A stretch of DNA of 64,000 nt. Source: a virus. Its lineage: Duplodnaviria; Caudoviricetes. The position numbers and the translations under genes are program-made. Shown piece after piece: positions 8,603 to 9,810 of the stretch (its first letter is position 1; each line of letters begins with the position of its first letter). Under the pieces are notes generated by a model, which made no database searches, had not been told where the DNA came from, and saw only the letters and a list, made by a program, of their open reading frames with translations. The stretch lies in IMG/VR virus record IMGVR_UViG_2030936005_000025, positions 160,001-224,000 of that record; one strand, 5' to 3'.

Positions 8603-8773
8603 TTAGGCTTTGTTACGTTTGGCCATAACTGGAGCTGGAGTAAAGATAACTTTGAAAGCATCTTTGATCTGAGTGATTCCAACATAACCAATAACAACTG
8701 CGCCGATACCACCGAAGAAAGCTGCAGCGATTGCGACGTCATCAGGAGTAGTTGAGCTGAAGAAATTAAACAT
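8603..8773 (-). CDS. small single-pass membrane protein (56 aa, absent from the ORF track)
   Basis: MFNFFSSTTPDDVAIAAAFFGGIGAVVIGYVGITQIKDAFKVIFTPAPVMAKRNKA, directly downstream of the promoter at 8827. Confidence 0.7.
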   Translation of the reverse strand: MFNFFSSTTPDDVAIAAAFFGGIGAVVIGYVGITQIKDAFKVIFTPAPVMAKRNKA

Positions 8774-8864: not shown

Positions 8865-9587
8865 TCAGTCTTTTATTTGATCCCAAGTCTCAGAGCATAA
8901 GGTGATTGACTCTGGTAATTTCTTTTCGTCAAAGAGTTGCTTAATGATCGGGAAAGCAATCTCTGAGTCAGTACCGTATACCAGGGAAACGTGGAGCAAG
9001 AGGTCGTCGTAAGAATGTTTAAATCCTTCTTTGACCAGTTCTTTGTGTCGCTCAAGCACACCGCTGGATTCCAAGATCAGCGCACAAGAACGCCACTTAG
9101 AACCCGGCTTACCTAACATTTGCACACCGACTATCTGGCCTTTGTAGACCTTGTTAGATAATGATGGGACAATGTCTGGATTTCTTTCATCGTACATGAT
9201 CGTTGCATGAAGCTTGTTAACCGGGATTAAGTCAAGCTCCTCACAAACAGGCACGATTTCTTTATACAGTTTTGTACCGCTGGCTAAATCGACGTGTAAC
9301 TCAGCATAACCGTGATTCGACATAAGCTTTGGAACCTTTTTAATTTTTCCCGCACTCACAGCATAGAGGGCGGAGTCCAAACAATCTACAATATGACTTC
9401 CTATCAAATCTGTCTTATTCTTAAAGCGGTCTTTAAGAATTAAAAGAAGATGTTCCTCAGTCAAACCATTGGTAGAGAATTCGAACCTTGCCACACGGTT
9501 ATCGTCTTTATCGTAGACCTTGTATTGGTCCGGATGAGCAGACACCGTTCTGATACGACTATTTTCGTCCTGATGAATCGTCGCCAT
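8865..9587 (-). CDS. acb1: Acb1-like 2H phosphodiesterase with an N-terminal Tad1-like domain
   Basis: Two 2H motifs, LHATIMY and LHVSLVY, plus GFKHSYDD, resembling T4 Acb1 (IHSTICY...GATHDFDD...PHITLSY). The extra ~85-aa N-terminus carries NGLTEEHLLLILKDRF. Confidence 0.75.
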   Translation of the reverse strand: MATIHQDENSRIRTVSAHPDQYKVYDKDDNRVARFEFSTNGLTEEHLLLILKDRFKNKTDLIGSHIVDCLDSALYAVSAGKIKKVPKLMSNHGYAELHVDLASGTKLYKEIVPVCEELDLIPVNKLHATIMYDERNPDIVPSLSNKVYKGQIVGVQMLGKPGSKWRSCALILESSGVLERHKELVKEGFKHSYDDLLLHVSLVYGTDSEIAFPIIKQLFDEKKLPESITLCSETWDQIKD

Positions 9588-9750
9588 CTTTCTTTCCTGA
9601 ATGTTTGAGGATATAGGCGCGTTTCTCTTCGCGACTTAAACCCGGTGGAACTTCGATGTTTTCTTCGGCCAGCGCTTTATCCATACGCTTCTGATCAATT
9701 ACAACAATAGTACCTGCAACTTGAGATCGGCCTCGAATCATTCCTTTCAT
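9559..9750 (-). CDS. hypothetical protein
   Basis: 63-aa ORF with a GGAGA RBS. Confidence 0.6.
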   Translation of the reverse strand: MKGMIRGRSQVAGTIVVIDQKRMDKALAEENIEVPPGLSREEKRAYILKHSGKKDGDDSSGRK

Positions 9751-9785: not shown

Positions 9786-9810
9786 GTAACCAGGGAGAAC
9801 CCCTGGTTAC
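9786..9810 (-). terminator. intrinsic terminator
   Basis: gtaaccaggg-agaac-ccctggttac with minus-strand T runs. Confidence 0.7.

Follow-up and report, generated by a model that had tools for sequence, protein, structure and literature searches.

A Tad1-derived domain fused to an Acb1-family phosphodiesterase in a jumbo phage

Phage sponges and signal-cleaving nucleases have so far been treated as alternative means to silence the defence systems CBASS (cyclic-oligonucleotide-based antiphage signalling system) and Thoeris. What, then, does a gene do that codes for relatives of both? Such a gene lies on the minus strand at 8865-9587 of the 64,000-nucleotide stretch analysed here (the window; positions 160,001 to 224,000 of IMG/VR record IMGVR_UViG_2030936005_000025, a complete 264-kb jumbo-phage genome). 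An earlier note, made from the letters alone, had read it as a possible Tad1-like sponge joined to an Acb1 phosphodiesterase, a capture-and-destroy protein inserted in the core block. Our analysis bore out that a Tad1-derived domain is fused to a 2H phosphodiesterase of the Acb1 family, whereas it did not support the multi-signal sponge or the insertion. The fused form was also found in Erwinia phage AH04, the nearest deposited relative (81% nucleotide identity across the locus region), in Kosakonia phage Kc263 and in 16 metagenomic protein clusters; with 18 fused sequences known, a sequencing error was ruled out as the origin of the fusion. The locus thus unites sponge and nuclease: nucleus-forming jumbo phages encode the two as a conserved gene pair and, in one lineage, as a single protein, which is probably an Acb1 enzyme carrying a Tad1-derived accessory domain.

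The two halves of the protein

The open reading frame (ORF) was confirmed as a protein of 240 amino acids (aa) with the domain boundary at M89: residues 1-88 are Tad1-derived and residues 89-240 belong to the Acb1 family, in agreement with the sizes of about 85 and 150 aa that had been proposed. The strings quoted in the earlier note were all found in it, both the 2H motifs LHATIMY and LHVSLVY and the N-terminal TIHQDE, YKVY, RFEF, NGLTEEHLLLILKDRF and CLDSALYAV, and the latter line up with Tad1 as suggested there. The two-domain match is far above chance (Acb1, 41.3 bits against a cut-off of 27; Tad1-like, E = 8e-10).

An intact 2H phosphodiesterase of the Acb1 family makes up residues 89-240. 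Within it, residues 120-209 match the Pfam family PF23474 (Acb1) with E = 1.6e-10, and no LigT or further 2H family was reported besides it in the Pfam search of the protein. PF23474 was present in all 36 homologues, in which the histidine motifs are invariant. The active-site tetrad HxT/HxT (H44, T46, H113 and T115 in FBB1 Acb1), whose two motifs have been shown to be catalytic (Hobbs et al.), is present, with Ser for Thr in the second motif. An AlphaFold2 (AF2) model based on the 36 homologues gave a 2H phosphoesterase fold that is compact, with a predicted local distance difference test score (pLDDT) of 87-98 for most of residues 93-236. The best PDB matches found by Foldseek were 9Q2Y, a phosphodiesterase of Burkholderia phage BCSR5 (E = 2.3e-9), and 7T26, FBB1 Acb1 (2e-7), while Usb1, plant CPDase and LigT ranked well below; a profile of the family of this half, compared with all PDB sequences, matched Acb1 entries only. 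It has been reported that 9Q2Y is PDE-9, which belongs to the same structural group as T4 Acb1, cleaves 3'3'-cyclic GMP-AMP and spares the Panoptes signal, and that specificity differs among viral 2H phosphodiesterases even inside one structural group (Doherty et al.). We infer that this half is enzymatically active.

Residues 88-239 also match PHROG 755, which is labelled 'RNA ligase'. Mislabels have spread between records of both families: Acb1 homologues are annotated as 'RNA ligase' or 'structural protein', and Tad1 homologues as 'ABC transporter ATPase', which is likewise the molecule name of PDB 7UAV (Tad1).

Residues 1-88 are a true Tad1 homologue. Residues 1-92 alone gave no match in Pfam, PHROGs, NCBIfam, a word-indexed homologue search or a phmmer search against PDB sequences, and the link to Tad1 surfaced solely through an exhaustive profile search and the neighbour genes of related phages. 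When the whole protein was searched by tblastn, the match spanned two annotated genes in N1M2, OBP, Yubaba/Sureiya and SXP01, the upstream of which codes for 108-151 aa and often carries the transporter label. One of these upstream products, OBP gp060, matches CbTad1 (7UAV and the 8KB-series entries) with E = 1.9e-8, CmTad1 with 3.6e-6 and Tad1 homologues of Bacillus phages at about 1e-10. A profile of 16 fused N-terminal domains, run against 1.84 billion proteins, returned besides the fused forms only long Tad1-like proteins (P0039, E = 7.7e-10; P0040, 4.8e-6; P0041, 2.2e-4). The joint profile of fused and long forms matches Tad1 at 2e-5, whereas the profile of the fused domains reached only E = 0.7 when compared directly with Tad1. 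The top PDB matches of the joint profile, to TAL-effector repeats, were rejected as an artefact of the string 'NGLT..a.v.ai', no single stretch being significant.

Comparison of the AF2 model of this domain with Tad1 structures gave the same answer. The model (pLDDT 85) has strands at residues 3-6, 10-15, 18-26 and 31-36 and helices at 44-55 and 61-78, which is the Tad1 topology. All 19 of the 19 best Foldseek matches in the PDB were Tad1 chains (template modelling (TM) score 0.58-0.67), and the next fold reached 0.32. In the exhaustive VIA-align search CmTad1 came first (Z 7.2 over 83 aa) and CbTad1 had Z 6.7, these two being the only matches that covered the whole domain. In a viral structure library the best matches were OBP gp060 and the N1M2 protein (TM 0.75). 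Since the chain of sequence matches and the structure matches both point to Tad1, the alignment proposed in the earlier note was correct. The reduced domain escapes Pfam, PHROGs and NCBIfam; being invisible to such family libraries, hidden anti-defence remnants may therefore be common.

No other Tad1-like sequence was found in the complete 264-kb genome by a profile that detects the fused domain at 1e-39. A Tad1-like region was observed in phiKZ, a phage in which AntiDefenseFinder reports Tad1: residues ~155-226 of gp184 (PDB 8Y6V chain I), an inner-capsid vertex protein cleaved by the head protease, match the Tad1 helices with E = 2e-6 when the Tad1 profile of the jumbo phages is used. The phiKZ head may thus contain a packaged Tad1-like module. 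No such second copy is present in the 264-kb genome.

Although the fold is that of Tad1, the ligand pocket has been dismantled. In CbTad1, 1''-2' glyco-cyclic ADP-ribose (gcADPR) is contacted by H29, G55, R57, R78, F82, F87, N92, R109, R113, G120 and N122, which sit on four loops and a C-terminal lid (Leavitt et al.), and R90 and T97 bind cyclic trinucleotides at the hexamer interface (Li et al.). These contacts were mapped through an ungapped alignment of OBP gp060 with CbTad1, followed by an alignment of the long and fused forms, and the β2-β3, β4-α1 and α1-α2 loops and the C-tail were scored as pocket elements. The long jumbo-phage Tad1 proteins retain G55, R78, F87, N92, R109 and R113 and are without R90 and T97 (P or H, and E, respectively). 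In the fused form the FQxG loop between β4 and α1, with G55 and R57, has been removed by a 9-residue deletion, and F87 by a 5-residue deletion in the α1-α2 loop; F82 is substituted. The position of the adenine-reading N92 is G63 in the window's protein and G, N or T across the fused forms, that of R109 is G80, and in place of the C-terminal lid with G120 and N122 there is the linker to Acb1. The absence of the FQxG loop and the R-E-N loop had been stated in the earlier note. At the site for cyclic triadenylate (cA3), R90 lies within the part that is deleted or substituted, and T97 corresponds to the acidic D68.

The position of H29 could not be mapped, and only two of the 11 gcADPR contacts are retained, R78 as R54 and R113 as a lysine (K84). 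About 9 of the 11 gcADPR contacts and both cA3 contacts are therefore lost, and only one of the four pocket loops has escaped shortening or loss. Residues 1-88 carry neither the Tad1 pocket for gcADPR and cyclic dinucleotides nor the cyclic-trinucleotide site. Judged from these residues, a working gcADPR or cA3 sponge in this domain is unlikely, and the 'capture' of several signals that had been proposed did not hold.

Origin of the fusion and constraint on the trimmed domain

The ancestral state is a pair of adjacent tad1 and acb1 genes, which were fused in the window's lineage. Separate tad1 and acb1 genes were found in OBP, N1M2, Yubaba, SXP01, the relatives L018 and L019 and the outgroup Aeromonas phages, and OBP, N1M2, Yubaba, SXP01 and the Aeromonas phages have a complete tad1 immediately upstream of acb1, at the conserved position that the fusion gene occupies in the window. 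In the tree of the Acb1 domain the non-nucleus-forming phages are outermost, followed by the Aeromonas phages with their separate, complete tad1, and then by a group of fused lineages together with a well-supported clade of split or Tad1-less forms; the fused forms thus nest inside the split-gene set. The gene had been described as an insertion in the core block. Since acb1 is found at the same syntenic position in all relatives examined, including the distant Aeromonas phages, usually with tad1 just upstream, it is rather an old resident that was remodelled.

The junction still shows how the two genes were joined. M89 is invariant in the fused forms and aligns with Met1 of stand-alone Acb1, and a ribosome-binding motif (AAGG or AGGG) is located 11 nt 5' of its ATG in all six fused DNAs examined, an arrangement shared by the stand-alone acb1 genes of L007 and pEt-SU. 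Because M89 is the old acb1 start and its ribosome-binding site has been retained, the two genes are concluded to have become one through loss of the Tad1 tail and the stop codon. The linker at the junction replaces the C-terminal end of Tad1 helix α2 and the lid tail. In OBP, N1M2, Yubaba, SXP01 and L019 the two genes are in the same frame, 1-3 codons apart, and this spacing in five split relatives agrees with a fusion that took no more than loss of the stop codon. Aeromonas D3, AVP1 and PS phages and L018 have them in different frames, and stop-codon read-through in the split forms was rejected on this ground.

The same locus has lost tad1 more than once. In L007, whose Acb1 is 79% identical to that of the window, only an out-of-frame remnant of tad1 ('IEFDTNGLTEE', L007:725-946) precedes the intact acb1. 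In L020 just a 'TIHQ' stub is left after the small upstream module (L020:973-1200), again with an intact acb1 downstream, and in pEt-SU and Survivor no tad1 remains at the locus. In every relative where tad1 was eroded, acb1 was kept. The relatives therefore form a natural series from complete tad1 with acb1, through the trimmed and fused form and the decayed remnant, to the absence of tad1, in which an anti-defence sponge is eroded or re-used and the enzyme retained. They also offer ready-made constructs for probing a Tad1 core without its pocket.

A separate Tad2 homologue is encoded elsewhere in the window, and homologues of it were also found in AH04, OBP, Kc263, Survivor, pEt-SU, SXP01, Yubaba and N1M2. 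Redundancy with Tad2 could explain the repeated erosion of Tad1 in this clade. Replacement of Tad1 by Tad2 in a complementary pattern is unsupported, since Tad2 is present in all phages of the OBP/AH04 clade, be their Tad1 complete, trimmed or absent; for the Aeromonas phages, which keep a full Tad1, it was simply not among the matches listed.

The trimmed domain itself is still under purifying selection and clearly constrained. In 10 pairs of fused genes the ratio of non-synonymous to synonymous substitution rates (dN/dS) ranged from 0.06 to 0.25 in codons 9-88 and from 0.07 to 0.11 in the Acb1 part, values that are rough because synonymous sites are near saturation (proportion of synonymous differences, pS, 0.43-0.75). 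At non-synonymous sites the rate of change in the Tad1 part is about double that in Acb1. No stop or frameshift was found in the Tad1 domain of the 18 fused sequences, at identities down to about 45%. Furthermore, the positions conserved in the fused forms (Y22, Y25, F37, N40-T43 (NGLT), D53, R54, C69 and A73) are the same as in the complete Tad1 relatives, and this shared core conservation points to maintenance of the fold.

Possible roles of the Tad1-derived half

We favour, with moderate confidence, the reading that the fused protein is an Acb1 enzyme with a Tad1-derived accessory domain, which has lost the classical sponge activity and for which a role in pairing or docking is likeliest. 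The Acb1 half would hydrolyse CBASS-type cyclic di- and trinucleotides in the cytoplasm. The Tad1 half would no longer sequester signals by the classical closed pocket and would be kept as a constrained accessory domain; we infer such an accessory role for it. It would most likely serve the pairing or assembly of the enzyme via the retained β4 seam and helix bundle that dimerise Tad1. It has been reported that the Tad1 dimer is held by a β4-β4 seam and a four-helix bundle formed by the core (Leavitt et al.), and assembly or docking is favoured because the retained core is this dimer-forming part. An open basic docking surface may sit where the lid was, exactly where Acb1 is tethered, and free Acb1 may also be made from the preserved internal ribosome-binding site and the M89 ATG. 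Anti-Thoeris sponge activity would more likely come from the separate Tad2 gene.

Several points weigh against this. There is no precedent for a benefit from Acb1 pairing, since Acb1 is described as monomeric, and the full-length AF2 model leaves the orientation of the two domains undefined (predicted TM score, pTM, 0.66; linker pLDDT ~63). R54 and K84 stay basic and the linker is lysine-rich, and some nucleotide binding may persist; the conservation of K84-V85 may instead come from the overlapping ribosome-binding site. At least one close relative, L007 with its decayed remnant, can do without the Tad1 domain, a loss that fits a weak or conditional function, and the dN/dS values that speak for constraint are rough, as stated above.

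A bolder version of the same idea, which is tentative and on the whole unlikely, is that in nucleus-forming jumbo phages Tad1 and Acb1 work as a physical pair, which the fusion would reveal as a 'Rosetta stone', and that in the fused lineage the sponge was exapted from a closed trap into an open module for docking and assembly. As a substrate-recruiting subunit, this module would concentrate cyclic nucleotides, or orient them, for the tethered phosphodiesterase, and the fusion protein would possibly be made alongside free Acb1 from the internal start.

That both halves still work, the Tad1 part sequestering gcADPR or cyclic oligonucleotides and handing them to Acb1 or complementing it, so that Thoeris and CBASS are both blocked ('capture and destroy'), is a rather doubtful alternative. 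Both parent families are proven anti-signalling proteins, dual protection is known from anti-signalling fusions such as Tad2-Acb4, and the purifying selection on the N-terminal domain, the kept R54 and K84, the basic linker and the attachment of Acb1 exactly where the Tad1 lid closes over the ligand would all suit it. However, it would have to do without G55, R57 and F87, with F82, N92 and R109 substituted and without the lid; the N92 position varies among the fused forms, and the cA3 residues are lost, with the acidic D68 in place of T97. In addition, a tight sponge beside a hydrolase would compete with it for the signal, not feed it, and the same phage has a separate Tad2.

We consider it quite improbable that the Tad1 part is a functionless remnant in the course of being lost, a passenger on Acb1 whose main product is perhaps the free enzyme started at M89. 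The erosion of Tad1 in L007, L020, pEt-SU and Survivor with acb1 always kept, the preserved internal ribosome-binding site and ATG, and the twofold faster non-synonymous change of the N-terminal domain would agree with it. Against it stand the dN/dS values, which even at their highest are far below 1, the 18 fused sequences without stop or frameshift at such low identities, and the core positions, which are conserved as in full-length Tad1.

Least probable, and indeed very unlikely, is that the 2H domain acts on RNA ends or another nucleotide (as a 2',3'-cyclic phosphodiesterase or in 2'-5' ligase-like repair) or is a packaged virion protein with a structural Tad1-like part, as could be argued from the 'RNA ligase' name given by PHROG 755 and many records, the 'structural protein' label of some homologues, the Tad1-like region of the inner-capsid phiKZ gp184 and the report that some groups of viral 2H phosphodiesterases cleaved none of 18 messengers (Doherty et al.): the quoted annotations are automatic, Pfam reports Acb1 above its cut-off and no other 2H family, in structure and in sequence alike the matches to Acb1 and PDE-9 are clearly the best, and a function in immune signalling is favoured by the conserved adjacency to a Tad1 homologue and the fusion with it.

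Gene neighbourhood and comparison with known systems

Along the direction of transcription the fusion gene is preceded by genes for an RNA polymerase β'-like protein (550 aa) and a 217-aa protein, a hairpin terminator and a 63-aa ORF, and it is followed by genes for a 56-aa membrane peptide, a virion-protein homologue, a 266-aa protein and SbcD (features in Table 1). This gene order is common to AH04, Kc263, OBP, N1M2, Yubaba, SXP01, pEt-SU, Survivor and the Aeromonas phages. The phrog_17259 module encoded by the 63-aa ORF is an in-frame N-terminal extension of the Tad1 protein in Yubaba, SXP01, P0039, P0040 and L019, a separate overlapping ORF in Kc263, L015 and L016, as in the window, and absent in AH04, L017 and L021. 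Since the overlap recurs in Kc263, L015, L016 and the P0003 contig, a sequencing error was ruled out for this upstream +1-frame ORF. On the other side, the 56-aa single-helix membrane peptide lies at 8603-8773 on the minus strand and has a promoter-like site (8858-8829) as well as a terminator with a strong hairpin (8597-8570). Almost all relatives examined have an ORF of 51-58 aa in this place; that of OBP has 80 aa, and in SXP01 none is annotated.

Table 1 Features of the fusion gene and of related elements in the window
Feature	Position	Strand	Remarks
Tad1-Acb1 fusion gene	8865..9587	-	240 codons and TGA stop; ATG start
Reduced Tad1-derived domain, residues 1-88	9324..9587	-	Four-stranded antiparallel sheet and two helices; AF2 model, Foldseek, profile chain
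Acb1-family 2H phosphodiesterase domain, residues 89-240	8868..9323	-	Pfam PF23474, Foldseek, family profile
First catalytic motif, H127-A-T129	9201..9209	-	Invariant in 36 homologues; aligns with first HxT of FBB1 Acb1
Second catalytic motif, H199-V-S201	8985..8993	-	Invariant in 36 homologues; aligns with second HxT of FBB1 Acb1 and PDE-9
Basic linker, residues 79-92, AGKIKKVPKLMSNH	9312..9353	-	pLDDT low in the two models; seen in the alignment of long with fused forms
Ribosome-binding site of acb1, still present (AAGG, 9335-9338), with the old start codon, M89 (9321-9323)	9321..9338	-	Inside the fused ORF
63-aa ORF, phrog_17259 module 'RMDKAL..PPGLSREEKR'	9559..9750	-	Overlaps start of fusion gene by 29 nt, +1 frame
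Hairpin and T-run	9786..9810	-	Ends the 217-aa gene, just before the small ORF
Tad2 homologue, 99 aa	39441..39740	+	Pfam PF11195, 55.8 bits; PDB ModTad2, E = 4e-9

Among known proteins, the fused N-terminal domain is closest to Tad1 (CbTad1, 7UAV/7UAW/8KBE-H; CmTad1, 8KBB-D), with which it has the sheet of β1-β4, the helices α1 and α2 and the core positions in common. It differs from the Tad1 proteins that have been solved or characterised in its length, which is about 35-55 aa less, and in being covalently tied to an enzyme. The C-terminal half is like Acb1 (T4 gene 57B; FBB1 Acb1, PDB 7T26/7T27) and the group-3 enzyme PDE-9 (9Q2Y/9Q2G) in its 2H fold, its two His-x-Thr/Ser motifs and its catalytic domain of about 150 aa. 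However, it shares only about 15-18% identity with the Acb1 proteins of solved structure, its second motif is HxS where known Acb1 has HxT, and it carries an extra N-terminal domain of 88 aa, whereas known Acb1 is described as a small, monomeric, single-domain protein. Additional domains have been reported for 13 of 75 viral 2H phosphodiesterases, and Tad1 is not named among them (Doherty et al.). No description of a Tad1-Acb1 pair or fusion was found in the literature searched, the coverage of which was incomplete.

Both halves of the fusion have orthologues in the gene pairs of OBP (gp060/gp061), N1M2 (gp39/gp40) and the Aeromonas phages D3 and AVP1, and these pairs occupy the same locus, limited on one side by the RNA polymerase β' gene and a gene of about 220 aa and on the other by the small membrane peptide, the virion protein and SbcD. 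There, Tad1 is a protein of its own, 108-182 aa long, in which G55, R78, F87, N92, R109 and R113 are retained, whereas here it is trimmed and fused. The nearest precedents for the fusion are the Tad2-Acb4, Sequestin-Tad2 and Sequestin-Acb4 proteins, whose modules also occur as separate genes (bioRxiv 10.1101/2025.07.12.664507) and which likewise combine two anti-signalling families in one polypeptide. Those proteins join sponge to sponge, with intact pockets and both activities shown, whereas the protein described here joins a relative of a sponge, its pocket dismantled, to a hydrolase.

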